A stretch of 64,000 nt of DNA from a virus: the IMG/VR virus record IMGVR_UViG_3300027896_005002, positions 123,488-187,487 of that record. One strand, 5' to 3'. Positions 3,421-53,317 of this stretch are shown in pieces. The notes beneath the pieces are model-generated. The model was not told the origin of the DNA, made no database searches, and saw only the letters and a list, made by a program, of their open reading frames with translations. Position 1 is the first letter of the stretch. Every line of letters begins with the position of its first letter. The position numbers and the translations under genes were made by a program.

Positions 3421-3615
3421 TCAGAAGTTCTCGAGATTTTTGAGAATTGTTTCTTCATCCATGTCATCCGGGAGTTCCATATAGTCTGGATTGCTTGGAT
3501 GTAGATGAGAGCGAGCAATGTTTCGTTTGATACGTGCTATTGCGAATATGTTGTAATTTTCCATATTAGTATAATCATGAGATAGCGTAGAAATGGCCAT
3601 TAATTTTTTTAGCAA
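3421..3615 (-). CDS. hypothetical protein
   Basis: 64-aa ORF filling the gap between co-directional genes. Confidence 0.25.
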   Translation of the reverse strand: MLKKLMAISTLSHDYTNMENYNIFAIARIKRNIARSHLHPSNPDYMELPDDMDEETILKNLENF

Positions 3616-3941
3616 TGACAGAAGAATCGTTCGGGAGTTTCTTCACAGTACATTTTGAGGAAGAAGGTGCATTCTTTATGAATTTGGCAGGGTTTGTGTA
3701 ATGATAGTGCTCTTTTGAGTATGTGTTCCATGAGTATGGAGAGTTCAGATCCTTTAAGATGTTTTGTGCTTTCTTCGACCTCTTCTACGCCACCATGAGC
3801 AGAAATTCTGAATTGGTGATCACGCCATGTAAAGCGTATTGCATTTTTTTCTGTTGTGAAGTCGATGTCAGTGATTTGTTTTTGGAATGGTATGATATCC
3901 GGCGTTGTTAGAGTTTTTATAATGTCCGATTGTGAGTACAT
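3609..3941 (-). CDS. hypothetical protein
   Basis: 110-aa ORF in the minus-strand gene array. Confidence 0.35.
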   Translation of the reverse strand: MYSQSDIIKTLTTPDIIPFQKQITDIDFTTEKNAIRFTWRDHQFRISAHGGVEEVEESTKHLKGSELSILMEHILKRALSLHKPCQIHKECTFFLKMYCEETPERFFCHC

Positions 3942-10058: not shown

Positions 10059-10229
10059 GATTTCCTCACGCCATCACTAAGGTTTTTGATTTTCTGGTTT
10101 TAGTCCGCTCATCCTTTTTGTACCAGCGATATGCCGTTGATTTGCTGATCGGTTTCGTGTTCGGTGAACAGGTTCCGTATTTTGAAGGCGATGTCCAAAT
10201 GCTGTTTTTCATAATTTCCTCTTTTTTTT

Positions 10230-10508
10230 TTAAGCATGAACCAAAGCTTGTTTCGTGTAGGAAGCCAAGGACCTACGACCGAATTTCCTACCTTGAACGC
10301 CGATAGATTCCAGGTGCTTGCAGTGGCCATGACGAATATTTCCACGGCAGGAACAAGTCCACCATTGGGCGCCAGGAGCATTGTCGTAAGAAACCATGTA
10401 AAGTTGATTGGAAGAAGACGACCGGACTTTGAATCTGACTTTGTAACGATCTGAATCCGGAAGAACCTCGACCGCTGTGTGCTGAATCCTGCTCATTAAA
10501 TCGTTCAT
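10230..10508 (-). CDS. SWIM-type zinc-finger protein
   Basis: WWTCSCRGNIRHGHCKHL fits the CxC...CxH SWIM pattern. AAGGAG SD. The bipartite promoter motif lies upstream. Confidence 0.35.
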   Translation of the reverse strand: MNDLMSRIQHTAVEVLPDSDRYKVRFKVRSSSSNQLYMVSYDNAPGAQWWTCSCRGNIRHGHCKHLESIGVQGRKFGRRSLASYTKQALVHA

Positions 10509-10650: not shown

Positions 10651-11421
10651 TCACCTATCAAGAATTGTAGTCTTTGAAATTGTTCCGCCTTGAGGTATTG
10701 AAATCAAATAACAGCCGTATTCTTTGCTATATTGACGGTGTATTTTGATGCCAGTTTTTTCCGAAGCGTATTCAATTGACCTATATGCATATGGAGGAAC
10801 TGCAATACTTCCATACATGGCATTCTTTTCCAAAAAGTCTAAAAGTTTGACGTAAAAATATGTTCCTTTTTTGGGAAGTGGGAAAAGAGTATTCTCAGTA
10901 GTGAACCTAGACTCTGTTCCTTGAACCAATTGATGTTTCCATTCTTTCCAATCGCCACTGATGATCCAATTGCACGGTTTTGGATAACCTTCAATGTGAT
11001 AGACACAAACATCAAGACCTGAAAGCGTTTTTACAATTGATCGAGAATAAAAATTGCCCGGTCGATTTTCATCATAACCTTCTAATCGATCCAAGAATTG
11101 GAAGTGGTCAACTTCAAAAACTTCGCCATGTACAAGATAATTGAAAGGATCTTGAAGGGTAATGAAGGGAAATCCTACCGTAAAATTAAACATTCGACCT
11201 CGGATTTTATCTTTACAAATAAATTTGCCATTAGAATTTTCCATTACCTGATAATTACTTAATCCACGTAAAAGAGTCCCATATACAAAGACGAGTTTCT
11301 TCATACTTTTATCTCGATTTTTTTGAAAGATTTTTCGATCATTGGCCTTACAATAACCGCAATTTGTGGCACTTTCTTGTGACCGATGTTTATGACCTTC
11401 ACGACAAAGATATATTGACAT
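10651..11421 (-). CDS. gamma-glutamyl cyclotransferase (GGCT/AIG2-like) domain protein with N-terminal zinc ribbon
   Basis: LVFVYGTLLRGLSNYQVM matches the GGCT N-terminal motif, followed by a conserved E (HGEVFEV). The C-terminal segment AYRSIEYASEKTGIKI is shared with the ORF at 22519. Confidence 0.55.
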   Translation of the reverse strand: MSIYLCREGHKHRSQESATNCGYCKANDRKIFQKNRDKSMKKLVFVYGTLLRGLSNYQVMENSNGKFICKDKIRGRMFNFTVGFPFITLQDPFNYLVHGEVFEVDHFQFLDRLEGYDENRPGNFYSRSIVKTLSGLDVCVYHIEGYPKPCNWIISGDWKEWKHQLVQGTESRFTTENTLFPLPKKGTYFYVKLLDFLEKNAMYGSIAVPPYAYRSIEYASEKTGIKIHRQYSKEYGCYLISIPQGGTISKTTILDR

Positions 11422-12054: not shown

Positions 12055-12468
12055 TCAGTTTAATTCATCGGGATTAGCGGTTTGCGATTCTTCGGCCGGC
12101 AAATTCGAAATCAAAGCATCGATTGCCTGTTGCCGTTCCAAAACCATCGCCTGATACGCTTCATAATCGTTTTGCGCCGGATTGGTCACCTTATAATCTT
12201 TCGTATAGGTGTGACCGGTTTTGCCATCCTCATTGACCCAAATATGAAAGCCGGCAGCATCGGCCTTTTTCGAAAGAACGCGTAGCTTGGAGCATTTTTC
12301 CTCGATCTTCGTATTGATCTCCGATTGCGTATCTTCATTACCGTCAGCTTCAGCAAATTCCACTTTGTGCTGGCCAATGGCTTTGTTGAGCATCCTATAG
12401 GCCTTGATGATTTGCAGGTTCGGGTCATCCGCGATTCCGCTTTTTGATACGATTTGTTTCGTCGCCAT
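12055..12468 (-). CDS. hypothetical protein
   Basis: 137-aa ORF in a locally GC-richer stretch. Confidence 0.35.
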   Translation of the reverse strand: MATKQIVSKSGIADDPNLQIIKAYRMLNKAIGQHKVEFAEADGNEDTQSEINTKIEEKCSKLRVLSKKADAAGFHIWVNEDGKTGHTYTKDYKVTNPAQNDYEAYQAMVLERQQAIDALISNLPAEESQTANPDELN

Positions 12469-12505
12469 ATCTTCTCCTTGTAAATGTGAACTGTGAACTT
12501 TTTTT

Positions 12506-13201
12506 TTACTTCGGATATTTGACCGCCGGTTGATACCTGCAAGCGGTTGTGACTTTTTCTACCGTTTCTTTTTGACCTTCCTCGATTGATTTCCGCATCT
12601 GGAAGTAATTGTACGAAAAATCTTCCGAGGGTTTCACCGTTTTGACTACATTGAAAAAATCGTTGTATCGATCAGCGAGAAGCGTTTTCAAAGCTTCAAC
12701 TTTTTCCGGGCGAAGGGTTGCGGTTTCAACAACCGTAAACATGATCTGGAATTTTTCCTTGAAGATTTTCTTCAAAGGTTCTTCCATTGCGATATCCATC
12801 GCGGAATATGATTCGCGGAATTGAATCTGCATCTGGGGTGGTTTGTAATTTTCTTCATCATCTTTGTCGGCACCTTTGATGTAAACCGTTTTGTAAAACA
12901 TATCATCGTTGAAAGCTTTTTCTTTTGCTTTTGCGGCCTCTTTTTTCAGAACATCTTCGAGCTCCACTAATTCCGTTTGCAAGTTTTCGATGTTCCGGGA
13001 AATTTCGATGCACTGATCAACGACGACTGTATAGGGTTTTTTTCCTTTATGATCTTCGGTTACCAAAGTGCAATCATCATCGAGAATGGGACTTTCAATA
13101 ATAAGTTTATCCTTATTGCGGTCGTTCTGGTTCTTTTTGCTACCAGCCAACTTAATGGCAGGCAAATCTTCAATTACGACCGGTGCTGCTTTTTTCTTCA
13201 T
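12506..13201 (-). CDS. hypothetical protein
   Basis: 231 aa. AAGGAGA SD. Promoter motif upstream. Confidence 0.4.
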   Translation of the reverse strand: MKKKAAPVVIEDLPAIKLAGSKKNQNDRNKDKLIIESPILDDDCTLVTEDHKGKKPYTVVVDQCIEISRNIENLQTELVELEDVLKKEAAKAKEKAFNDDMFYKTVYIKGADKDDEENYKPPQMQIQFRESYSAMDIAMEEPLKKIFKEKFQIMFTVVETATLRPEKVEALKTLLADRYNDFFNVVKTVKPSEDFSYNYFQMRKSIEEGQKETVEKVTTACRYQPAVKYPK

Positions 13202-13232
13202 ATATTCTCCTTTAAAAAAGTGATTTCCTTTT

Positions 13233-13284
13233 CCTATTTATATAATCAGTCATTTTTCACAAACCGCGTTCCAAAAGTGGCTGT
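13233..13284 (-). promoter_or_regulatory. bipartite promoter-like element (CCGCGTTCCAAAAGTGGCTGT plus TGATTATATAAATAGG)
   Basis: Conserved motif pair upstream of the gene that starts at 13201. Confidence 0.45.
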
Positions 13285-13409
13285 CGACCTAACTATTTAG
13301 TTATCCATGTTTTAGAAGAATCTGAATGGTTGTATATAGAACATAAATAAAAGTCGATGATAAAATGACACCAAAGATGAATTTGTATAATTTTCTCATA
13401 TTGCTCTCC

Positions 13410-14009
13410 TCAAGCGTTGTTTACTTTTAAGAATGCACGACAATTTGGACATCGAAATAACCAATATTCTATTGATGTGGGATCGTTTTCGTCTTTTATT
13501 TTAACAGTTATCAAATCTTTTTTTGCATATTTTCTACCACAAGCCGGACATTCATCTCTTTTTATTTGTAAATTTCCTCTATTTGTTTCCCATACTTGTC
13601 CAGGTTTGCTGTTTGATTGTATCTTTCTCCAAACTTTACCAGATGCCCAGTCATGCTGTGATTGTTGATATCGTTCAAACCGTTGTCGAGCTTGTTTTTC
13701 AACTCGATAAATCGCATTGAGTAAATTTGATCGCCAACCATTTACTCTGAGAACCTTTATAGTCCTTATCCAACCAATTCTATCTGTGATATTTACCGCG
13801 CATATGCGAATTGCATCCTGACCTTTTCCGCGACCGTTACCATTTTGTTTTGAAATTGATGAATATACTTTTATAATAATTTTTGGATTCTCAATCAAGA
13901 TTTTTTCATATACATATTCTCTGGTGGTTGAAGGTCCAGTAGCTTCTTCAAAAAAAAGATTTGCCATTACAACATTCATCTCGTTGAGAGTTATTACCGT
14001 ATAATGCAT
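13410..14009 (-). CDS. hypothetical protein with C-terminal zinc ribbon
   Basis: CPACGRK...CPNCRAF. AAGGAGAAAATA SD. Confidence 0.35.
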   Translation of the reverse strand: MHYTVITLNEMNVVMANLFFEEATGPSTTREYVYEKILIENPKIIIKVYSSISKQNGNGRGKGQDAIRICAVNITDRIGWIRTIKVLRVNGWRSNLLNAIYRVEKQARQRFERYQQSQHDWASGKVWRKIQSNSKPGQVWETNRGNLQIKRDECPACGRKYAKKDLITVKIKDENDPTSIEYWLFRCPNCRAFLKVNNA

Positions 14010-14274
14010 ATTTTCTCCTTATCGTCTTTTTGGTCTTTTGGAATTGTAACAAAGGAGTGCAGTAAATTACATCTTTTGTTTGCTTCATAATACGAGCGTG
14101 ATCAACCAACATATCAAATAGTTGGTAGCGACTTTCAGCAGATTTTGTTGTTTGAGAATAATTTCTATAAAATTTATCTGGAAAGGGATCATAAAGTACT
14201 TCAACTTTAACAGAAAATCTTTTTGTTTTAAAAGCTACTTCCGGAATTTTTGCCGTCAATTTAATTTTTTTCAT
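13948..14274 (-). CDS. hypothetical protein
   Basis: The start is set at MKKIKLTAK, with an AGGAGA box 7 nt upstream. The longer listed ORF would run through the promoter element. The 3' end overlaps the next gene by 62 nt. Confidence 0.35.
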   Translation of the reverse strand: MKKIKLTAKIPEVAFKTKRFSVKVEVLYDPFPDKFYRNYSQTTKSAESRYQLFDMLVDHARIMKQTKDVIYCTPLLQFQKTKKTIRRKYALYGNNSQRDECCNGKSFF

Positions 14275-14281
14275 TGTTTTT

Positions 14282-14410
14282 CTCCTATTATATATGATCA
14301 TGTCACTACGTGTTGTGCGTTCCAAATGTGGCTGTAGAAAAAAACAAATCTACGACTGCCATTTTTGGACCGCAATTAGTGGATTGATATGATTATATAA
14401 AATAGGAGAA
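14282..14410. promoter_or_regulatory. divergent promoter region with the bipartite motif in both orientations
   Basis: On the minus-strand side: TGCGTTCCAAATGTGGCTGT plus GATCATATATAATAGGAG. On the plus-strand side: GACTGCCATTTTTGGACCGC plus GATTATATAAAATAGGAG, ahead of the gene at 14438. Confidence 0.5.
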
Positions 14411-14437
14411 TGAAAACAATAAAAAAGGAATGATTAT

Positions 14438-15634
14438 ATGATAACAATCGGATGTGACCCAGAGTTCCTAGTACTCGGGCCCGATAACATGGTTAAAGGC
14501 TTCAACATCGGTCACAGTTGTCCCGCTGGAAATATTGGCACCGATCATGGTGGATCGGTTGGAGAATTAAGGCCAATGTATGGAACGCCCCGTCAGGTAA
14601 CCGAAAATATTCGGGAACTTTTTCGAATCATTCACACCAAAACTCCTCGCGATAAAATTGCTGCCGGTGGCGGTGAAAAATACGGTCATTCAATCGGTGG
14701 TCATATTCACTTTGGTGGAGTACAATTGGATCATACTTACGAATCTTGCACACGACAAAGAAATCGCGGACGAGTGAGACCCTTAACACTTGATCGTTCC
14801 AGGACAGTTCACAAATTAGTTTATATGCTCGATTATTATCTCGGTCGTCGGTTGAAAAAAATTGACGGCGGACAACGACCAAAATCAGCAAATTACGGTC
14901 GTTTATCTGACATCGAATCAAAAGGAACGGATCGATTCGAATATCGCACACCACCATCGTGGTTATCCGATCCGCAATTGACGGAATCCACTTTGGCAAT
15001 TTCATATCGGATCGCGGAAATGTGGAAAGAAAATCCGCGATGTTTCGATGAAATCATCAACCGAAACAAAAGCATCGCCCGAAAAAAAGAATATGGAGTT
15101 TTAATTCCCAATTCTGGTGATCAAAGAAATTACTACTCTGAACAAGTTGCAGCTTTTAAGCGAATAGCTTTTTCGAAAACATACCGAATGGACAATGCCA
15201 ATTGTTTGGACACATGGTTATCCGGTTCTCAAATCGCACAAATTGTCGATCGAATGTCGAAGAAGATTGCGTTGCAAATTTGCCAGATGAAATTGATAAC
15301 AAATCAGGACGGCATAGAATCAGAATCAGTCGTAAAAGTTTTGCGGTTTGCGGTACCTGAAGTAAAAATCATAGCACAGAGATTTAATTATCATCATGCT
15401 TTCCGGTCCCGAATTAAGGATGACACAATTTACATCAGCAAAAATTTGAGACCGTATCTTAAGGTAAAACGCGGGCATCACTTCCGAGTAAAATTTGCCC
15501 AATTTGACAACAACACTGTGGTTTATAAAACCGGCAACAGCAACATTTTGAATGAAGTAATAACAATTTTCGAAACCGGTGCAAGGAAAAAGCTTCGCAA
15601 AGCTGATGCAAATTTGATACCGGCTCAGTCATAA
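14438..15634 (+). CDS. putative amidoligase (glutamine-synthetase-like COOH-NH2 ligase, Amidoligase_2-like)
   Basis: N-terminal GCDPEF acidic strand and a GGHIHFGG His-rich loop recall GS-like amidoligases. This call is tentative. Context includes GAT-II (18641) and GGCT (10651) genes. Local GC content is higher than the flanks. Confidence 0.35.
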   Translation: MITIGCDPEFLVLGPDNMVKGFNIGHSCPAGNIGTDHGGSVGELRPMYGTPRQVTENIRELFRIIHTKTPRDKIAAGGGEKYGHSIGGHIHFGGVQLDHTYESCTRQRNRGRVRPLTLDRSRTVHKLVYMLDYYLGRRLKKIDGGQRPKSANYGRLSDIESKGTDRFEYRTPPSWLSDPQLTESTLAISYRIAEMWKENPRCFDEIINRNKSIARKKEYGVLIPNSGDQRNYYSEQVAAFKRIAFSKTYRMDNANCLDTWLSGSQIAQIVDRMSKKIALQICQMKLITNQDGIESESVVKVLRFAVPEVKIIAQRFNYHHAFRSRIKDDTIYISKNLRPYLKVKRGHHFRVKFAQFDNNTVVYKTGNSNILNEVITIFETGARKKLRKADANLIPAQS

Positions 15635-15705
15635 AAAAATGAAGAAATCTGGCCAAACTGTAAAAAACTGTTGATTATAAACATATACAAAAAGAGGAGG
15701 ATCAC

Positions 15706-16128
15706 ATGGCACAAGAAGTAATGCTTCAATTCGGAAATGATGATGAAGGCCTAAACTTGACCGGCACCGTCAATTTCCCAAATACGATTAACCTTCAAGG
15801 TCTCTCGGTCCTTTCAATCAAAGGTCTCGGGGAATGGCGTCATGCACCGGCCAATATCGTTCATATCAACGAACGAACGATTGAAACCTTCGGCATGAAG
15901 GAAAAGTCGAAGAATCTTTCGAAGGTTGGTCTCAATTGGATCGGAATCAAGGCCAACAGCGACATCCTTTTGGCGCATTCGCTGCGTCACGGTCGGACCG
16001 GAACGAAAAAGGTGCAGGATTTATTGACGAAGTTTTTCAAGGCCATCGGCGCTTCTTCCGTCAAATTCAGTATCCTGGACACCGAAAAAGAAATGGCCCA
16101 ACAGGCGGTACACGACGATAATCAGTAA
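15706..16128 (+). CDS. hypothetical protein
   Basis: 140 aa. Strong SD (AAGAGGAGG). Confidence 0.4.
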   Translation: MAQEVMLQFGNDDEGLNLTGTVNFPNTINLQGLSVLSIKGLGEWRHAPANIVHINERTIETFGMKEKSKNLSKVGLNWIGIKANSDILLAHSLRHGRTGTKKVQDLLTKFFKAIGASSVKFSILDTEKEMAQQAVHDDNQ

Positions 16129-16137
16129 TTCAGAAAC

Positions 16138-16165
16138 GGCCGTCCTAAATGGCGCCTGGACGGCC
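16138..16165 (+). terminator. GC-rich hairpin (GGCCGTCC-n12-GGACGGCC) after the gene ending at 16128
   Basis: Perfect 8-bp GC stem. No U-tract, so this may be an RNA stability or processing hairpin rather than an intrinsic terminator. Confidence 0.3.
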
Positions 16166-16218
16166 AATTCAATTGAACGGAATTTCCTTAACCAATAACA
16201 ACCTTCAAAGGAGGGAAT

Positions 16219-16542
16219 ATGGCGACAAAAAAACTTAAGTCGCTTAAGATCGAACGCAAAAAGAAAAAGGCCAAAAAGCAGGCAAAAATTCGCTTGACCA
16301 TCAAGGTCGCGAAAGTCGATCGCACGGCACGGAAAATCAAAGCCTTTGCGAAGAAATCCCTGAAATCAGCCATCAAGGGCCTCAAAGGCGCCAAGGTCAA
16401 AAAAATACCCGAACGCCTTTACCGGAAAATCGATGCCGCAATCGCCGGCAGCGCCGATCTCAAAACAATCGTCGACGAAGCCGTCGTCAAAATGGTCAAT
16501 GACAACCTTCTTCCCAAAAAGAAAGAAAAAGCGGAAGCATAA
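16219..16542 (+). CDS. lysine/alanine-rich histone H1-like DNA-binding protein
   Basis: KKAKKQAKIRLTIKVAKV ... AKKSLKSAIKGLKGAKVKK. SD AAAGGAGGG. Confidence 0.4.
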   Translation: MATKKLKSLKIERKKKKAKKQAKIRLTIKVAKVDRTARKIKAFAKKSLKSAIKGLKGAKVKKIPERLYRKIDAAIAGSADLKTIVDEAVVKMVNDNLLPKKKEKAEA

Positions 16543-16866
16543 ACCGTCATGGCCACTAAAAGAAAAAAGAAGGACACAAAATTGATTCCTTGTCCCGAAT
16601 GGAATGAGGATTCAAAATGTGTCCTTCCTTCTTGGGAAAGCAAAAAGTGTGGAAAGAACTACTGCAAAATATTACCACATGTTGAAAACAAAAATATAAT
16701 ATGATAAAATATTATAAGAACTATCCGGCGTAGAAAGGTCGACGTAACTGTCCCTTCAAAACTAACGGAGCTTATTAAGCATTGAAGTTAGCTACGCACT
16801 TGGTAATTGAAGAAACATCAATTACATTCACTTACTAGAAAACTTAAATTGATTTTGAAGAACTGA

Positions 16867-16904
16867 TTGAGACTGAGAATGCATGCTCGGTCTCAATTTT
16901 TTTT
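16867..16904 (+). terminator. rho-independent terminator
   Basis: TTGAGAC-tgagaatgcatgctcg-GTCTCAA followed by a T8 run, downstream of the plus-strand cluster at 14438-16542. Confidence 0.5.
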
Positions 16905-16923
16905 GAAATGATGACAACCACTT

Positions 16924-17979
16924 TTAGCGACCAGTTTTGTCAAGATAAATTGGGTCTCTCTGTTTCAAGAATAATCTGCCAAAACCAACAATATATCTTT
17001 CTATCATTGGCTTTATCACTATTCCCTCTCTCAATTTATCAATCATAAAACTTTGACTATGAGAAGCTTCAGGCAATGTCCGTCCATTCAACCAATCCTT
17101 TAATGAAATATACGTCGAAATTATAGGCACCCATATTGCTCTCAAACCTGTTCGATCTAATATAGGTTGAAGTTCATTATAACCCAAAGGCCGACCATTT
17201 ATATCTATATCAAACAACCTTGTCGTAAACTTCTTTAAATTATAATGATTACCTTGCACTCCAGGCCCTATAAACTCACTCCTTATAGTCACTGCACAAT
17301 TTGGATAAAATTCTGATTGTATTATTTGAGCGGCTACTATTAATCCTTCATTTTTTGCTACTTGCCAAAAAGAATGATCTTCATGATCTGGCAAATTAAC
17401 TATTCCATGACCATGTGTACAAACACTTATTGTCTCATCTATACCAACAAAAGTAGCCATATTGCTACCTTCAATCTTCTCTGTTATCCACACTAATTCA
17501 TTCATCAATATGTCAACAATATCAATATGAGTCTCACAATTCTCAATATCATAATTATAAACCATCTCAGGTCTCTGAATCAAATTACCTGTACTTGTAA
17601 TTATCTCTGGCGCTTCATATTTAGTAACTCCTATAGCTGCTGTCAAATCAGTTGGTAAAGTATCAGTTTTTAAATATGTTTTTACACTATCTATGGATGT
17701 AACTAGTCCTTGACTTATTTCACCACGTAAGCGAACAGTTTTGATTCTATTTTGATCTTTTCCAGACAAAAAATTCTTGATATTTTGTTGTTGGATAAAA
17801 CCTTCAGGTAATAAAGAATCTATAGGGAAATATATTATTTCGTCACCAGTTTTATATAGACCTTTGGGTATTACAAATTGATATGTCATATCCTCGACTT
17901 GACCTAATTCAAGTTTATCTGCATTTGGATGAGGATACACTTTCGACAATTTCTTTCTTTCAACAGCAAAGGTACTCAT
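16924..17979 (-). CDS. RNA ligase (Rnl5/NgrRnl-like) with N-terminal tRNA-binding-type OB domain
   Basis: The N-terminal YPHPNADKLELGQVED resembles the Trbp111/MetRS C-terminal OB motif. The nucleotidyltransferase domain has motif I EKIEGSN, motif IV NEGLIVAAQ, and a REGIVIKP motif. Confidence 0.55.
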   Translation of the reverse strand: MSTFAVERKKLSKVYPHPNADKLELGQVEDMTYQFVIPKGLYKTGDEIIYFPIDSLLPEGFIQQQNIKNFLSGKDQNRIKTVRLRGEISQGLVTSIDSVKTYLKTDTLPTDLTAAIGVTKYEAPEIITSTGNLIQRPEMVYNYDIENCETHIDIVDILMNELVWITEKIEGSNMATFVGIDETISVCTHGHGIVNLPDHEDHSFWQVAKNEGLIVAAQIIQSEFYPNCAVTIRSEFIGPGVQGNHYNLKKFTTRLFDIDINGRPLGYNELQPILDRTGLRAIWVPIISTYISLKDWLNGRTLPEASHSQSFMIDKLREGIVIKPMIERYIVGFGRLFLKQRDPIYLDKTGR

Positions 17980-18079
17980 TTTGATTCCTTTAGATAGATA
18001 TGTGTTTCTCCCTCCGGAACTTGATTTATTTTATGCGTCAACCAACAATTAATTTACGTCGAAGATTTTTATTTTTTCT

Positions 18080-18098
18080 ACGCGCCTAAAAGTGGCAG
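18080..18098 (+). promoter_or_regulatory. copy of conserved motif (CGCGCCTAAAAGTGGCAGT)
   Basis: Intergenic, about 100 nt upstream of the RNA ligase gene. Confidence 0.3.
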
Positions 18099-18193
18099 TT
18101 TGAACTCGAAAGTATTTCTCCCCCTATATAATATAAGGGACTCATCTTCAATTTCTTGAGAAGACAAGTCCCTTAATAAATAGGAGGAGGAAA

Positions 18194-18397
18194 TTATTTA
18201 AAAATATCTGTAGTGTCTATAACATGAACTCCCGTAGAATCAAATTGAAATTGAGGTTTAGGTGTCACTGGTTTTGGAAGTGGCACAAGAAGTATCTGAA
18301 TTTTGTCGAGATTTCTTTCAATTTTTTTCACAGAAACACTAATATTCAAAAGAGTAACTGTAATAATACAAAGTAAAATGACGATAATAACTTTCAT
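18194..18397 (-). CDS. small secreted/membrane protein
   Basis: 67 aa with an N-terminal hydrophobic segment. Confidence 0.3.
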   Translation of the reverse strand: MKVIIVILLCIITVTLLNISVSVKKIERNLDKIQILLVPLPKPVTPKPQFQFDSTGVHVIDTTDIFK

Positions 18398-18445
18398 ATA
18401 ATCCCTTTGGTTAAATCAGTTTCATAACGGAAATGAAAGGCAATT

Positions 18446-18640
18446 TCACGTGCATCTTTTGGAGACAAGCCTTTTGCTAATACCCACCCAAAAGCCAGAG
18501 AATACCAAATCTTGCTCTCGTGGTACTTCAATCGCAGTAGCTTTATCGGATACTTCTTGCTTAAAAGTTGTCTTTAAATCTTTGAGAAGAATTGTTCCGC
18601 TAGGAATAGTATATTTTGAATGAGCACCGGCGAACTTCAT
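18446..18640 (-). CDS. hypothetical protein
   Basis: 64 aa, immediately downstream of the GAT-II gene. Confidence 0.25.
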   Translation of the reverse strand: MKFAGAHSKYTIPSGTILLKDLKTTFKQEVSDKATAIEVPREQDLVFSGFWVGISKRLVSKRCT

Positions 18641-19600
18641 TTAATTATTTCCCTTTTTGTAAGTGATCTGTTTTGTGCCATTACTTCCGATTCGGACTAT
18701 TTTCGGTGAATTAGGATCCTTAGGATTTGATCCACATCCTCGAACTATCGTCGGCTTTGACTCTCTTGAAAAAGATGTAATGCCTATCGGCCGATTTGCT
18801 TGTGTCACTTTCCGATAATTATGATCGTATTGACTTGAGGATAAGGGAGAATCATCGCTTTCATCGGAGGTATAAGTTATTGTCGCAGCTTTTTTCTTCT
18901 TCTCCTCTATAACTCCCTTCCTCGAGAACTTATTTTTCACCACATCAAATTCCAGAAGTTCCCTTTCATAAAGGGTCGCAAAACTGATATTCGGGAATAT
19001 TCCCATTTCATTTTTCACTCCCAACGTCTTCAACATGATTTTCTTTGTGGAAGCAAAAAATATTATCCCATGATACATTGCCATACATAACGGTTTCCCA
19101 CCATCGGTATAAAAATACATTTTCTTCTGGGATTTCGAATACATCACCAAAGCTGCTGACCCTTCAATTGATGCTATTGCATTTTTGAGTGACGTTCTTT
19201 CCGTATAAGCGAGAATCGATTCTGAGTCGACATCACTTGTATATGGGTAATTTGCCAACTTATCTAAATGGACCGTTCCATTATGCACCAACACCCAATT
19301 TTTTGATTCAAATGGATGTGCATTTCGATTTTCTTTGATTGTTGCAAGACTAGATGAAGCATATCGGCAATGGCCGATTACAAATCGTTCATTGCCAATT
19401 GTCGGACTGACGAAATGTTCATTGACAAAATCTTTGGCACAAATGGAAGCTTTTATAATTCCAGTTCCGAGGGAATAATATCCGGTAGCATGCTCTCCGC
19501 GTTCTTGGGTATTTATCAAACCCTTAACAAAAAGGGAGTTCAAATCAAGATCAGTTGTCGTTTCTTTTGTTGGTTTAATCCATCCAAATATTCCACACAT
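18641..19600 (-). CDS. class-II (Ntn) glutamine amidotransferase domain protein
   Basis: Begins MCGIFGWI, with the catalytic Cys2 right after the initiator Met. NGTVHL and ..DSE.. segments are consistent with GAT-II. Long Ser-rich C-terminal tail. Confidence 0.55.
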   Translation of the reverse strand: MCGIFGWIKPTKETTTDLDLNSLFVKGLINTQERGEHATGYYSLGTGIIKASICAKDFVNEHFVSPTIGNERFVIGHCRYASSSLATIKENRNAHPFESKNWVLVHNGTVHLDKLANYPYTSDVDSESILAYTERTSLKNAIASIEGSAALVMYSKSQKKMYFYTDGGKPLCMAMYHGIIFFASTKKIMLKTLGVKNEMGIFPNISFATLYERELLEFDVVKNKFSRKGVIEEKKKKAATITYTSDESDDSPLSSSQYDHNYRKVTQANRPIGITSFSRESKPTIVRGCGSNPKDPNSPKIVRIGSNGTKQITYKKGNN

Positions 19601-19637
19601 CGTTTTTGTCTCCTTGTTAATATAATCAACAGTTTTT

Positions 19638-19775
19638 TCAATGACCGTTTCGTCTTTTTTGAAAATCTTCGACCCTTTGACTAACTCTACGAACTGACGC
19701 TTTTTGTTCGTCGCTTAAATGTTCGTAGCTACGACCGTAATGTTTCCTTGCTAATTCCTCATATTTTTCATTCAT
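19638..19775 (-). CDS. hypothetical small protein
   Basis: Start set at MNEKYEEL, which has a GAGGAAAA SD. Under the ORF-track cutoff. Confidence 0.25.
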   Translation of the reverse strand: MNEKYEELARKHYGRSYEHLSDEQKASVRRVSQRVEDFQKRRNGH

Positions 19776-20064
19776 GATTTTCCTCACAATCTTCGCAGTT
19801 TTTTTCCGAATGTGGACATTCTTCTTTTCCGCAAACATTTGATTCTTCTTCATCATTTATTTGCAGTTTGAGTTTTTCCACTACATCAAAAAGATTCGGT
19901 CCCATTGAAACAAATTCATTAGTAACTTGTTTGCCGTAAGCTTTCCATTGTTCATAAAGATGTGGATCAAGTCTGCGAAGAGCACTGCTAAGATCATTCA
20001 TTGCTGACTCAATGGTGTTTGCCAAAGACTGAATTTCATCAAAATCTTCTTGAATAAGACTCAT
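19768..20064 (-). CDS. acidic Cys-rich hypothetical protein
   Basis: 98 aa with a C-terminal CGKEECPHSEKNCEDCEE. Confidence 0.35.
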   Translation of the reverse strand: MSLIQEDFDEIQSLANTIESAMNDLSSALRRLDPHLYEQWKAYGKQVTNEFVSMGPNLFDVVEKLKLQINDEEESNVCGKEECPHSEKNCEDCEENHE

Positions 20065-20075
20065 AAATTTATCTC

Positions 20076-20450
20076 CTAAGCCGCATCAATGATTTGTAGA
20101 TTTTTTGCGAATTGTTCTCGTTCAATCCTCCAACGTTCGTTTGCCGCAGTTACCTTAGTCTCATATTCTGATTTCAATTGGTTCAGACAATTATCATGAT
20201 TTATGTCTGGATTGCCGATCCTCTCGTTTTGTTTGAGAGCAAAATAAACGGCATCGGCGTAAGCGGAATAACCAGGAGCTCCAGCATTTGATCGGGAAAG
20301 TTTACTAACTCTTTCCTTGACAATAACAATCCTGGCTTTCGGATATTTAACTCTTTCAGCCTTAATTTCTGCAAGAACGCTGTCTTTATCATAAGTCTTA
20401 TAAAGTCCTGTAAAATGTAATCCTTGACTTAAGGCTTCTTCATTTTTCAT
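20076..20450 (-). CDS. hypothetical protein
   Basis: 124 aa. An AGGAGG SD and the bipartite promoter lie immediately upstream. Confidence 0.4.
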   Translation of the reverse strand: MKNEEALSQGLHFTGLYKTYDKDSVLAEIKAERVKYPKARIVIVKERVSKLSRSNAGAPGYSAYADAVYFALKQNERIGNPDINHDNCLNQLKSEYETKVTAANERWRIEREQFAKNLQIIDAA

Positions 20451-51809: not shown

Positions 51810-52204
51810 TCTGTTTAAAGGTCCATTCTTCCTTCAACAGATTTTCATTTGCATCATACAGAGATAAAGGAGTATTCAGGATTCTCTGTTTGATCGTATT
51901 ATTACTACTCCAAATTTTTATAAGCATAACTCTACCTATATATATAATCATTACTCCAAATTTTTATAAGCATAACTCTACCTATATATATAATCATTAA
52001 TTATATCATAGATAGAATTATTTTGTTTTTGATTGTTCGGTCGTTCGACGATTGACTTCTTCGTTTTCCATATGTATAGTCCATTGACTATGCATTTTTT
52101 TAAAATCGTCTACGACTTCTTTGCGGATTTGTTCTTTTGTTTTCATATAGCCTTACAATTAAATATAATAACTTTTTAATATTAAAGTTATAAAATAATT
52201 TACA

Positions 52205-52246
52205 AAAAAAAGGCCGTGAGAGAATACCCTTCGCTCACGGCTTTAT
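52205..52246 (-). terminator. rho-independent terminator (bidirectional potential)
   Basis: GCCGTGAG-cgaagggtattct-CTCACGGC with a T8 run on the minus strand and an A8 run on the other side. Confidence 0.55.
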
Positions 52247-52321
52247 TATTCTATTATTTGTATGAATTACAAGATAGAATGATGCTTTCTAATTACTTCG
52301 ACATTTATCATTTAGCATAAT

Positions 52322-52412
52322 GTCCCTGCTCTACCAACTGAGCTATCGACCCTCGTAGTATTCTTTTTTAAAAAAATACTGTGAGGGTCGAACTGGAATT
52401 GAACCAGTGACT
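52322..52412 (-). other. tRNA-like element with halves in permuted order around a palindrome
   Basis: Minus strand reads ACTGG-TTCAATT-CCAGT (T-arm) + TCGACCC (3' acceptor) + T + CAC, then a palindromic spacer AGTATTTTTTTAAAAAAGAATACTAC, then GAGGGTCGA-TA-GCTCAGTTGGTAGAGC (5' acceptor plus a canonical D-arm). No anticodon arm completes it. Confidence 0.3.
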
Positions 52413-52555
52413 GGAATAGTAATGACAAATTCTCCATAATTATTGGCTTTTAGTATTAGTATGGAACGTTCACTCGCATAATTATGAATTAGGACCATCA
52501 CAAGTGTCAAGTGAGCCCTAATAAGTATGAATATAAATATTATGATACGTTCATA

Positions 52556-53317
52556 TTATCCATTAATAAATTGAAAAATATATTTGCCAATATTGAGTGA
52601 ATTATCAACAACAGTATCATTTGCTCTTGCTCTTGCTTTTTTCACGGCTGCAATCAAAATATCAATCCTCGAAAGGATATCACTTTTTTGTGCAGGTGAA
52701 AGTAATCCACTGAAATTTGTTTGTTTCCAATTACCGACAGGAACATCTTCATTAATAAGTTGAACCTGTGGAGGATGTTTGTCAGTTCCTGGATGTAAAG
52801 TAATAGGTTTTGCAATTTTATTTGTTCTGACCCTTGATGTCGGTTCGGTTTTAAATCGACCTTTTCCGGCTTCGGTATCAGGAAGCCATTTCTTTGCTGG
52901 ATCCAATGTCGGAATAACATCATAAATTTGTGTTCTTAAACTTTCCAATTGATTTTCAAGTTGTACTAATGCCTGAACCGGTACATTCTTAATTGTTAAG
53001 TCTTTGCCATCTTCGCCATTAATATTAATATCACCTTTTGCTTTTGTGTTGGCATCTTCTTTTTGTAAAATGATATCAAACAGTCTGGTCATCGATTTTT
53101 CAAAATATGTTAATTTGTCGCCCACTGTTGTAATTGGAGTTGGTAATTCCTGTTCAGGAATATCTTTATCTGAATCTGCAAAGGGTTCATATAACTTCGC
53201 GTGTGTGCTGAATAAGTGTGCCTTTTTTGTAAAAGTTTGATTGGTTTCAGCAATAATTTTACCTGCAGTTCCTCTGACATCTTTTTCTACCGCTACTAGC
53301 TCATGTAATTTTCCCAT
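52556..53317 (-). CDS. hypothetical protein
   Basis: 253 aa. Confidence 0.35.
   Translation of the reverse strand: MGKLHELVAVEKDVRGTAGKIIAETNQTFTKKAHLFSTHAKLYEPFADSDKDIPEQELPTPITTVGDKLTYFEKSMTRLFDIILQKEDANTKAKGDININGEDGKDLTIKNVPVQALVQLENQLESLRTQIYDVIPTLDPAKKWLPDTEAGKGRFKTEPTSRVRTNKIAKPITLHPGTDKHPPQVQLINEDVPVGNWKQTNFSGLLSPAQKSDILSRIDILIAAVKKARARANDTVVDNSLNIGKYIFQFING

Follow-up and report, generated by a model that had tools for sequence, protein, structure and literature searches.

YrlA RNAs are tRNA-like Y RNAs of bacteria and phages that are bound by Ro60/Rsr (Chen et al., 2014, PMC4201824; structure in bioRxiv 10.1101/312249). Chen et al. identify a YrlA by its position within 4 kb of a Ro60/Rsr gene (TROVE plus vWA) on the same strand (PMC4201824). 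A GNCGAA(N0-1)G motif near the YrlA 5' end is the proposed Ro60 contact, while the tRNA-like module is described in the structure paper as binding "an unknown factor" (bioRxiv 10.1101/312249). In M. smegmatis, the YrlA acceptor stem is 7 bp long and is cleaved by RNase P, and the upstream fragment then gains CCA (PMC4201824). Within the literature searched, phage permuted tRNAs or tRNA-like ncRNAs are treated in the YrlA papers only.

The window analysed here, a 64-kb stretch of viral DNA, carries a tRNA-like element on its minus strand. As the first-pass annotation had read it, the 3' half precedes the 5' half and a hairpin caps the acceptor helix, and this structural reading is correct by sequence and fold. 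The T-arm and 3' acceptor strand (ACTGG-TTCAATT-CCAGT-TCGACCC, 52408..52385) lie upstream of the 5' acceptor strand and D-arm (GGGTCGA-TA-GCTC-AGTTGGTA-GAGC, 52352..52328), and the two 7-nt acceptor strands are fully complementary. They had been said to pair across a palindromic spacer of 26 nt; the pairing and the hairpin stand, and the spacer measures 32 nt. Its outermost TC/GA lengthen the acceptor helix to 9 bp and its inner 24 nt (AGTATTTTTTTAAAAAAGAATACT, 52380..52357) fold into an additional hairpin, so the acceptor helix becomes a single long closed stem-loop. Having no free ends there, this helix cannot be charged. The element is also larger than the interval first reported (52205-52412), since a 4-bp stem and a terminal stem (52442..52290) enclose the reported part.

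Read as RNA from its 5' end, the element opens with the terminal stem's 5' strand (UAAUUAU-GGA-GAAUUUGUCAUU, 52421..52442), which forms 12 + 7 bp with 52312..52290 (52442..52421 being the 5' partner) in both the RNAfold MFE and centroid structures. The internal-loop 5' side ACUA, the UUCC strand and the 4-nt variable loop AGUC follow at 52409..52420, and a YUAY-type CUAU (52419..52416) marks the start of the V region. UUCC (52416..52413) pairs with GGGA (52326..52323) in a 4-bp stem that we take to be the equivalent of an anticodon stem, and the last C of the variable loop pairs with G15 as a Levitt pair. The T-arm (ACUGG-UUCAAUU-CCAGU, 52392..52408) and the U8-A9 and D-arm segment (GCUC-AGUUGGUA-GAGC, 52328..52345, with G18G19 present) are read from the sequence and lie in the Rfam match described below. 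Between them stands the acceptor-like closed hairpin (52346..52391), which has no CCA and is built of UCGACCC (52391..52385), the 2-bp extension, AC/AC bulges, the apical hairpin (52380..52357) and GGGUCGA (52352..52346). The fold is completed (52290..52327) by A26, the GGGA strand, the 3' side of the internal loop, CAUUAUGCU, and the terminal stem's 3' strand; the family consensus at the internal-loop 3' side is approximately R-A-U-Y-A-G-N-N-U-R-A. The MFE structure, identical to the centroid, recovers the T-arm, closed acceptor hairpin, D-arm and terminal stem, with z = -5.2 to -6.7 against shuffles. The absence of an anticodon arm noted at first reading is confirmed, and ARAGORN calls no tRNA in the whole window. 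The core spans about 150 nt, and the distance from predicted promoter to terminator is about 270 nt.

The element had been placed between a strong terminator and a gene start. The terminator is there, downstream on the same strand, and belongs to the element itself, but on the upstream side a gene has its 3' end (stop at 52556). This gene (52556..53317, minus strand) encodes a 253-aa DUF7873 protein (PF25283, Pfam E 2.8e-69). Neither it nor the Y-RNA class was considered in the first-pass annotation. Directly 3' of its stop is a block, AATATTTATATTCATACTTA (52526..52545, minus strand), that is kept in the window and three related loci (L004, L007, L005), occurs once in the window and is conserved at clade level. 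It is followed by a sigma-70-like TTGACA-18-CATAAT (52481..52510, minus strand), which matches the consensus at 11/12 positions; the RNA is predicted to be transcribed from it, with a putative start near 52474. The depositors of phage FBKp24 annotated a promoter at the same place, between the DUF7873 gene and the RNA. Alignment with L004 and L007 reveals no conservation of the window promoter, so co-transcription of the RNA with DUF7873 is also possible. A 5' leader block, GAACGTTCCATAC (52459..52471, minus strand), is kept in L004, L007 and L005; it occurs once in the window and elsewhere in the closest relatives only.

The 3' tail (52204..52289, minus strand) holds a small hairpin (52280..52248) and then the intrinsic terminator hairpin (52241..52204), which folds as GCCGUGAG...CUCACGGC followed by eight U residues. 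Its apex, GAAGGGUAUUC, is unique in the window and conserved in alignment with L005 and L007, where the stem covaries; a pattern scanner missed this terminator because its loop exceeds 8 nt. The leader block, the terminator apex and a 3' YGAAAR motif are real for subgroups only. Two small ORFs that run over the element (52312..52437 and 52343..52510) are probably spurious.

The best Rfam match of the window RNA is YrlA (RF02553), at full length, with 35.6 bits and E 3.5e-6; this score lies under the YrlA gathering score of 69, and no Rfam match in the window reaches gathering level. The module order is that of YrlAs: a 5'/3' terminal stem, V region, T stem-loop, closed acceptor-like stem, D stem-loop and a loopless equivalent of the anticodon stem. 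Shared features extend to the long end stem and the YUAY at the start of the V region, to the elbow nucleotides (U8, G18G19, T-loop UUCRA) and covarying Levitt pair, and to occurrence in phages with tRNA genes adjoining. The family model built here also recognises a near-threshold classical YrlA, at 54.6 bits. The element is very probably a YrlA-type tRNA-mimic ncRNA gene. It is not a conventional tRNA by the ARAGORN check, nor are its halves random matches, given the E-value of the YrlA match and compensatory conservation in every related locus.

The usual partner of YrlAs is missing from the locus. No Ro60/Rsr gene lies within 4 kb on the same strand, human Ro60 and D. radiodurans Rsr have no tblastn match in the 64-kb window, and Pfam TROVE is absent from the 50 window ORFs scanned. 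The GNCGAA(N0-1)G motif does not occur on the 5' strand of the window RNA, and the GUCGAAG on the 3' strand of its terminal stem (52302..52296) is probably a chance match. Across the family of related RNAs described below, GNCGAA(N)G is not enriched (2/63 and 3/63 against 1.1 and 1.6 in shuffles). At least 60 of the 75 cultured phage genomes with DUF7873 belong to genera without a TROVE match. Ro60 does appear in the same gene string at three loci, L065, L099 and, weakly, L085, the only related loci where it lies within 4 kb on the strand of the RNA. In L065 its gene is immediately adjacent to DUF7873, in L099 it comes after the RNA, and both of these loci have classical YrlAs. The near-threshold YrlA-like RNAs of the same architecture in these two loci do not lie directly downstream of DUF7873.

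Several features set the DUF7873-linked RNAs apart from described YrlAs. Those scored with the YrlA model reach 32-38 bits, and Ro60-proximal YrlA matches in L065, L099 and Forza reach 50-61 bits. The T-stem sequence varies freely in the DUF7873-linked RNAs, whereas that of YrlAs is conserved. Their neighbour is DUF7873, which is mentioned neither in the Y-RNA papers nor elsewhere in the literature searched, and most of their loci have no Ro60 gene nearby. Most of them combine a 7-bp acceptor stem with an encoded N-CCA. The 7 bp and U(-1) are shared with the YrlA of M. smegmatis, which is Ro60-bound and Ro60-adjacent; the CCA that the latter gains after cleavage is already encoded in these relatives. 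The substrate features of the M. smegmatis RNA are missing from the window copy, whose acceptor stem is extended and closed as a hairpin. The window RNA is thus a closed-hairpin subtype of a DUF7873-linked, mostly Ro60-less YrlA-like RNA.

Linkage to DUF7873 is the constant of this family. DUF7873 is the invariant upstream neighbour, with homologues in 90/90 loci and the RNA downstream, on the same strand in 76/76 non-redundant sources and about 100-300 nt away, within a full range of 80-730 nt. Protein identity across these sources ranges from 30 to 100%, which excludes contig redundancy as the cause of the conservation. Beyond DUF7873, a gene family is shared by 10 of the 90 loci at most, and no third gene travels with the pair. 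At 50% identity the DUF7873 family falls into 2,581 protein clusters, from phages of Proteobacteria, Actinobacteria and Cyanobacteria with genomes of 46 to >440 kb. The AF2 model of the protein (pLDDT 93.5) shows, on structure comparison, no known structural relative and no recognisable RNA-binding fold, and PHROGs contains no match. DUF7873 is, by gene linkage, the presumed protein partner of the RNA. On the strength of gene order, the balance tilts slightly towards the RNA acting together with DUF7873.

The fold is maintained by compensatory change. In an alignment of 85 sequences, pairing is intact in 99.0% of cells (66.7% in shuffles), 407 cells carry double changes against 101 in shuffles, and the true register scores 0.874 against at most 0.155 for slid registers. 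Covarying pairs are found at 7/7 acceptor positions, at 4/5 positions of the T-stem and in the D stem. Among 63 family members U8 is invariant, and the Levitt pair 15:48 covaries (G15:C48 in 54, A15:U48 in 6). The stem 27-30:40-43, for which the search did not select, is fully paired in 47/63 against 5.5% of controls, and the terminal flanks pair with a mean of -19.9 kcal/mol when cognate and -11.6 kcal/mol when non-cognate. An N-CCA is encoded in 47/63 members against a background of 1.3%, and most members have an RNase-P-type U(-1) with the 7-bp acceptor stem. The closed-acceptor subtype accounts for 16/63, the window copy included. ARAGORN calls no tRNA overlapping any family element. Megablast of the locus against cultured phages gives no match, and an exact-word IMG/VR search for the element and a single-protein search for the locus likewise find nothing; DNA divergence is too great for DNA searches to recover these relatives, which need profile or protein routes.

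The module is present in cultured phages, namely phiRSL1, RHph_Y65, Mimi, NiceHouse, GodonK, FBKp24, D520, Keelan and PA-SR01, and its RNA is unannotated or mis-annotated in them. The annotation "tRNA-OTHER Sup-TTA" overlaps the RNA in FBKp24, and small spurious CDSs do so in D520 and GodonK. In RHph_Y65, Mimi, NiceHouse and GodonK the module sits inside the phage tRNA array, and tRNA genes lie near it in phiRSL1, D520 and Keelan. RHph_Y65 also gives a strong second hit (L088 10376-10471), which may be a copy of the RNA without DUF7873. Hosts include Klebsiella (FBKp24), Gordonia (GodonK and Keelan), Rhizobium (the RHph phages) and Vibrio (D520).

The best explanation overall is probably a YrlA-like tRNA-mimic ncRNA gene coupled with DUF7873. 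The fold, its covariation and the obligate genomic coupling are observed, and we infer that RNA and protein would work jointly as a ribonucleoprotein. The T-arm and D-arm would form a tRNA elbow, and the anticodon arm would be replaced by the 4-bp stem, a conserved asymmetric internal loop and the long terminal stem. If Ro60-Y RNA particles are a guide, the protein would dock on the irregular terminal stem or on the internal loop, leaving the tRNA-like module to engage factors that recognise tRNA, for example modification enzymes, RNase P, the CCA-adding enzyme, nucleases or repair enzymes. In most relatives, the encoded N-CCA and U(-1) should allow RNase P to open the acceptor loop, giving a tRNA mimic in two pieces with a CCA end. 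These N-CCA and U(-1) features, the location in tRNA arrays, the presence of Ro60 in three loci and the enzymes of the window suggest a function in phage tRNA/RNA surveillance, repair or protection while infection proceeds. The Thg1-like, RNA ligase and nucleotidyltransferase genes named in the first-pass annotation are all encoded there (Thg1 at 63373..63996, RNA ligase at 16924..17979 and the RlaP nucleotidyltransferase at 61033..62184).

An invariant same-strand position 80-730 nt downstream of DUF7873 would also suit a cis-acting 3' element of the DUF7873 mRNA, which would either draw RNase P or tRNA-processing enzymes to the 3' end, so that this end is defined or stabilised, or feed back on DUF7873 expression. 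The tRNA-like mascRNA element of MALAT1 is a precedent of this mRNA-3'-end type, most members are plausible RNase P substrates by their U(-1) and N-CCA, and the lack of promoter conservation in L004 and L007 points the same way. We nevertheless judge a cis-acting element unlikely. The 11/12 sigma-70 promoter lies between the window gene and the RNA, as does the promoter annotated in FBKp24, and the closed acceptor stem of the window copy, 9 bp plus a hairpin, is expected to be a poor RNase P substrate. A bare cleavage signal would have no use for the conserved terminal stem and internal loop, and the similar near-threshold RNAs away from DUF7873 in L065 and L099 are at odds with a cis role.

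It is more doubtful still that the RNA works by itself as a tRNA decoy, titrating defence enzymes or toxins of the host that are directed at tRNA, with DUF7873 a mere neighbour. Several toxins act on tRNA acceptor ends, and a decoy would fit the location inside phage tRNA arrays, the genome's tRNA repair set (Thg1, RlaP and RNA ligase) and the tRNA-like acceptor end with CCA in 47/63 relatives. Anticodon nucleases would not be decoyed, however, for want of an anticodon loop, and the window copy has no free acceptor end to offer. If the protein had no part in it, the almost strict association with DUF7873, the sole conserved neighbour, would be difficult to account for. The first-pass annotation had suggested a decoy or a processing substrate, a conceivable reading; RNase P could plausibly process most relatives but not the window copy.

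The permuted order of the halves, the RNA ligases encoded in the window and, in most relatives, the 7-bp acceptor stem, U(-1) and N-CCA recall a true permuted or split tRNA gene, another suggestion of the first-pass annotation and one that the YrlA structure paper raises for YrlAs in general (bioRxiv 10.1101/312249). A ligase would join the ends and RNase P/Z would open the acceptor loop, through a circular intermediate as in Cyanidioschyzon merolae. As cited in that paper, the permuted tRNA genes of C. merolae have a full, BHB-flanked anticodon stem-loop and mature to decoding tRNAs through a splicing endonuclease of eukaryotic/archaeal type (Soma et al., 2007, cited in bioRxiv 10.1101/312249); the window element has neither the anticodon stem-loop nor BHB features. 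Past the 4-bp stem its strands run instead into an internal loop that is asymmetric and then into a long helix whose sequence varies, and its ends form a 19-bp irregular helix from which no anticodon stem-loop, with its 5-bp stem and 7-nt loop, can be reconstituted. We know of no bacterial splicing endonuclease. ARAGORN labels nearly all of 5,100 in-silico joins "tRNA", but the anticodon is set by the cut points only and is thus arbitrary; these calls indicate that the T, D and acceptor parts are tRNA-like and lend no support to a real anticodon arm. An openable 7-bp acceptor with discriminator and CCA is found in 47/63 relatives, whereas in the window copy the acceptor hairpin is closed, extended and devoid of CCA, and no conserved identity set is seen across the 63 members, whose acceptor stems and discriminators vary freely. 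We therefore consider it very improbable that the element is a permuted or split tRNA gene.

Two-piece tmRNAs occur in alpha-proteobacteria, some beta-proteobacteria and cyanobacteria, and their small partner SmpB substitutes for the anticodon arm. The gene order of the element, T-arm, 3' acceptor with CCA (encoded in most relatives), loop and 5' acceptor, is that of a permuted ssrA, and a weak beta_tmRNA match lies beside the element in phiRSL1. Yet a permuted tmRNA-like ribosome-rescue RNA with DUF7873 as SmpB analogue is scarcely credible. ARAGORN, which can detect permuted tmRNAs, calls none, and Rfam tmRNA families have no match in the window region even at E <= 10. The closed structure leaves no room for a tag reading frame or pseudoknots, and the window element has neither. 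Position 3:70 is G3:C70 in the window, and the alanine identity pair G3:U70 occurs in 1/63 members; the D-arm is canonical, unlike that of tmRNA. GodonK, L012 and L028 carry standard tmRNAs alongside the element.

The notion of tRNA debris, whether two tandem tRNA remnants or an att-type duplicate of a host tRNA 3' end, akin to the att-like site proposed in the first-pass annotation, draws on the warning of Chen et al. that dimeric tRNAs can score as false YrlAs, and tandem-tRNA junctions reach up to ~37-48 bits with the family model built here; its probability is negligible, as neither ARAGORN nor Rfam finds a tRNA beside the element or elsewhere in the window, the "tRNA 1" 3' strand complements the 5' strand of "tRNA 2" without a mismatch, the flanks pair with each other, and no integrase is found among the 50 window ORFs scanned. 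Debris or an att remnant was rejected on the covariation that holds the fold in 85 divergent sequences and on the fixed position relative to DUF7873 in 76/76 sources.

To return to the coupling of a YrlA-like RNA with DUF7873, YrlA-type Y RNAs have so far been defined by proximity to Ro60, and the same architecture is here coupled to another protein family. Dozens of deposited phage genomes can now be recognised as carrying an RNA gene that was unannotated or mis-annotated, and non-decoding RNAs of tRNA-like form lie within phage tRNA arrays, where standard tRNA finders and Rfam thresholds overlook them. It is a tentative proposal that DUF7873 might be the dedicated partner of a distinct and very widespread class of phage tRNA-mimic RNA, in a Ro60-independent "Y-RNA-like" particle whose RNAs would mostly be opened by RNase P into two-piece, CCA-ended mimics for tRNA surveillance or repair, or for countering host tRNA-directed defences. 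DUF7873 may be a factor of the long-postulated kind that reads the tRNA-like module of YrlA RNAs; it is a concrete candidate partner for that module, in cultured systems that are tractable.

The tRNA-like element lies on the minus strand with its 3' half first, as the first-pass annotation had read it. Direct reading places the T arm and 3' acceptor strand, ACTGG-TTCAATT-CCAGT-TCGACCC, at 52408..52385 and the 5' acceptor strand and D arm, GGGTCGA-TA-GCTC-AGTTGGTA-GAGC, at 52352..52328. The spacer between them, described as palindromic, measures 32 nt rather than 26; its inner 24 nt do form an additional hairpin. The flanking 7-nt acceptor strands TCGACCC and GGGTCGA are mutually complementary, and the acceptor helix reaches 9 bp once the outer TC/GA of the spacer is counted. 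RNAfold on the region alone encloses the T hairpin, long acceptor hairpin and D hairpin in a terminal stem of 12+7 bp, with an MFE structure equal to the centroid (z -6.7 for 271 nt, -5.2 for the 157-nt core). The core reported earlier is real, but the terminal stem extends the element to ~52442..52290, beyond the original interval. The strong terminator said to lie on one side of it exists (52241..52204, minus strand) but is the element's own. The apex of this intrinsic terminator, GAAGGGUAUUC at 52222..52232 (minus strand), consists of GAA/UUC closing a GGGUA loop and is conserved while the stem covaries, recurring in related loci L005, L007, L045 and L049. Because the apex motif occurs once in the window, termination may not be the only role of the hairpin. 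A perfect 46-bp tandem duplication (51906..51999; 2.0 copies, 100% identity), some 200 nt past the terminator, overlaps small ORFs. L003, a JGI variant of the locus, has two adjacent 54-aa ORFs in its place, which suggests that copy number differs between samples.

Directly upstream of the RNA is the gene for a DUF7873 protein (PF25283; 52556..53317, minus strand; Pfam E 2.8e-69), and a 416-kb metagenomic contig encodes an identical protein, which points to a very large, phage-like genome as the source. Homologues of 30-100% identity were gathered from metagenomes, IMG/VR and GenBank phages. A structure-aware scan (5-bp T stem, TTCRANT loop, 7-nt strand, 7-147-nt loop, complementary 7-nt strand, TA, D-arm) finds this module in 75 of the 86 loci (63 distinct sequences), always on the DUF7873 strand and mostly 100-280 nt beyond its stop. 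A covariance model trained on 56 of these sequences finds exactly one copy in the window and a strong match just downstream of DUF7873 in 76/76 non-redundant sources, including those that the scan missed. ARAGORN calls no tRNA that overlaps any of the elements. In the model-based alignment (n=85), standard pairs fill 99.0% of pair cells versus 66.7% when shuffled, double-sided changes number 407 cells versus 101, and the covariation score is 0.874 versus 0.226 in shuffles and at most 0.155 in slid registers. Since the scan selected for the T, acceptor and D helices, unselected features were checked separately. A 4-bp stem corresponding to tRNA 27-30:40-43 pairs completely in 47 of the 63 distinct sequences (5.5% in non-cognate controls), and the pairing energy is -19.9 kcal/mol between cognate flanks but -11.6 between non-cognate ones. 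All 63 have U8; G15:C48 forms the Levitt pair in 54 of them and A15:U48 in six. All-against-all clustering of every locus ORF reveals no other gene family common to more than 10 of 90 loci, and therefore the conserved unit is DUF7873 plus the tRNA-like RNA; recurrent neighbors are ordinary replication genes. The shared strand and downstream position could also reflect a cis-acting 3' element of the DUF7873 mRNA, an unlikely reading; in the window, a near-consensus promoter, TTGACA-18-CATAAT (52510..52481, minus strand), lies between the upstream gene and the element.

Members differ in how the acceptor stem ends. N-CCA directly follows the 3' acceptor strand in 47/63 distinct members (background 1.3%). 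The acceptor stem of these members is 7 bp long and their tRNA-like 3' end is encoded; U precedes the 5' acceptor strand in 30 of the 47. Such a U(-1) is preferred by bacterial RNase P. N-CCA members thereby share the properties, the 7-bp acceptor stem among them, through which M. smegmatis YrlA is a substrate of RNase P (PMC4201824). RNase P probably opens CCA-type members into a two-piece mimic. It probably does not open the window copy, which belongs to a closed minority subtype (16/63) whose helix runs on (TC...GA) into a hairpin without CCA. Both the acceptor-stem sequence and the discriminator are freely variable, and G3:U70 is seen in 1/63, so no aminoacylation identity is conserved. 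A stand-alone tRNA decoy might carry CCA ends, yet is unlikely for an RNA whose linkage to DUF7873 is obligate. In 17/63 distinct sequences, a YGAAAR motif at a fixed +28 to +34 nt after the D-arm faces a AAGUAAUUG-type 5' motif, by eye resembling a loop-E/bulged-G (AGUA/GAA); the window copy lacks the arrangement in that form. Tandem pairs of tRNA-like elements follow DUF7873 in L011, L012, L024, L037, L041 and the phages NiceHouse (L090), GodonK (L091) and Keelan (L096). They recall Salmonella and M. smegmatis, where YrlA and YrlB arise as a pair by processing of a single precursor.

The first-pass annotation had proposed a permuted or split tRNA gene or an att-like site; its observation is confirmed and its interpretation partly supported, the architecture being right and the identities mostly wrong. 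ARAGORN, run as it had advised, calls no tRNA or tmRNA at the element or elsewhere in the 64-kb window, and no Rfam family matches the window at gathering level. With permissive Rfam thresholds, the region's best match is YrlA (RF02553, 'Y RNA-like'), not tRNA: full length at 35.6 bits (E 3.5e-6), short of the 69-bit gathering score. A true permuted tRNA gene would account for the order of the halves but is very improbable for a conserved fold that, as first noted, has no anticodon loop. A tmRNA-like RNA is a shade more improbable, and tRNA debris or an att site is scarcely credible beside the covariation.

Chen et al. (PMC4201824) give five defining features for YrlA: pairing of the ends in a terminal stem, a V region opening with YUAY, the order T stem-loop, acceptor-like stem-loop, D stem-loop, a GNCGAA(N0-1)G motif at the 5' end, and a same-strand Ro60 within 4 kb. 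The arrangement of halves described in the first-pass annotation is that of this class. The window element falls below the gathering score, has no adjacent Ro60 and lacks the 5' motif, and for these three reasons is not classed as YrlA proper. It is a member of a DUF7873-linked variant within the known YrlA class of tRNA-mimic RNAs, and the variant appears undescribed in the searchable literature.

Inclusion in Ro60 gene strings is occasional. Searches by tblastn with human Ro60 (matching PDB 9nen at 100% identity) and D. radiodurans Rsr (taken from the 2nvo alignment) detect no TROVE-like coding potential in the 64-kb window and, over all loci, match only L065, plus weakly L085. In L065, DUF7873 begins where a 534-aa vWA_Ro60/TROVE protein ends. 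A near-threshold classical YrlA (60.7 bits), whose 5' motif is of the CCGAA type and whose acceptor stem is closed by a tetraloop, lies upstream of the Ro60 gene. Four permuted tRNA-like elements surround the Ro60-DUF7873 operon on this IMG/VR contig (129-220, 387-566, 1438-1574, 4865-4959): two tetraloop-closed, one of them the near-threshold YrlA, one with a ~100-nt acceptor-loop insert, and one DUF7873-type RNA. L099 strings DUF7873, the RNA, a 558-aa Ro60, a tRNA, two YrlAs and further tRNAs on one strand; RlaP, a receiver domain and DUF5661 lie upstream, and the same genes flank the module in the window. The proposed Ro60-contact motif GNCGAA(N)G is not enriched among DUF7873-linked RNAs and few loci carry Ro60. 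In architecture the family therefore resembles YrlA, but it is mostly Ro60-less and its invariant neighbor is a protein of its own. Among GenBank phage records, 359 carry TROVE, chiefly those of Mycobacterium and Streptomyces phages. The 75 with DUF7873 come from phages of Vibrio, Rhizobium, Gordonia, Klebsiella, Serratia, Arthrobacter and Ralstonia and from cyanophages; at least 60 of the 75 fall in genera where TROVE has no match. Two related Gordonia phages, Forza and GodonK, share synteny in their tRNA arrays: Ro60 heads that of Forza, with a YrlA-like RNA inside, and DUF7873 with two tandem tRNA-like RNAs is inserted between tRNA-Asp and tRNA-Leu in GodonK.

In cultured phages, the RNA occupies an unannotated gap after DUF7873: phiRSL1 (ORF270), RHph_Y65, Arthrobacter Mimi, Rhodococcus NiceHouse, Gordonia GodonK and Keelan, Klebsiella FBKp24, Vibrio D520 and Pseudanabaena PA-SR01. 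Location in tRNA arrays is frequent: the gene sits inside one in RHph_Y65, Mimi, NiceHouse and GodonK, and tRNA genes are nearby in phiRSL1, D520 and Keelan. The FBKp24 element (68.9 bits) lies downstream of a depositor-annotated promoter. A deposited 'tRNA-OTHER (Sup-TTA)' overlaps its T-arm half (L094 3518-3597 vs 3554-3671) and is probably a mis-call of it. Tiny CDSs over the element in D520 (3431-3526) and GodonK (11003-11131, opposite strand) look spurious. In RHph_Y65 (L088), a second strong family-model match (10376-10471, 62 bits) and further YrlA-like matches (10205-10319) fall in an unannotated stretch ~4.5 kb from DUF7873, possibly additional RNA copies away from the protein gene.

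Many relatives place the module within a tRNA array. In the window, ARAGORN and Rfam detect no conventional tRNA gene, yet it encodes Thg1, RNA ligase and the RlaP nucleotidyltransferase, as previously listed, plus two further ATP-dependent ligase-domain proteins. This phage-like genome also encodes an 821-aa protein with a Major Vault Protein shoulder (E 7e-21) and vault repeat domains (30747..33212, minus strand), near which are an RRM protein (56344..56727), a WGR-domain protein (56743..57225) and RNA-repair enzymes. In eukaryotes, a vault contains MVP together with a TROVE protein and a small RNA, and by analogy the MVP-like protein could conceivably be linked to the tRNA-like RNA. Between RlaP and the DUF5661/WGR/RRM block, but on the other strand, a TnpB/OrfB_IS605 gene (412 aa) followed by a 235-aa ORF with only a sub-threshold Pfam match (PIN_6, E 0.0084) looks like a mobile-element insertion (59074..61016, plus strand). 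In a related 120-kb contig (L005/L006), the module adjoins a gene for a 2,646-aa fused RNA polymerase beta/beta'-like protein with intein and LAGLIDADG matches (12414-20354, minus strand).

Ro60-Y RNA particles are the model from which the function of the DUF7873-linked RNA is inferred. The irregular terminal stem and conserved asymmetric internal loop, A-rich on its 5' side and approximately R-A-U-Y-A-G-N-N-U-R-A on its 3' side, would dock a protein, most plausibly DUF7873, and the tRNA elbow and acceptor module would engage tRNA-recognizing enzymes. Such a particle might serve tRNA/RNA surveillance, repair or protection during infection. The variant is widespread, and DUF7873 is a candidate protein partner for a tRNA-mimic RNA.
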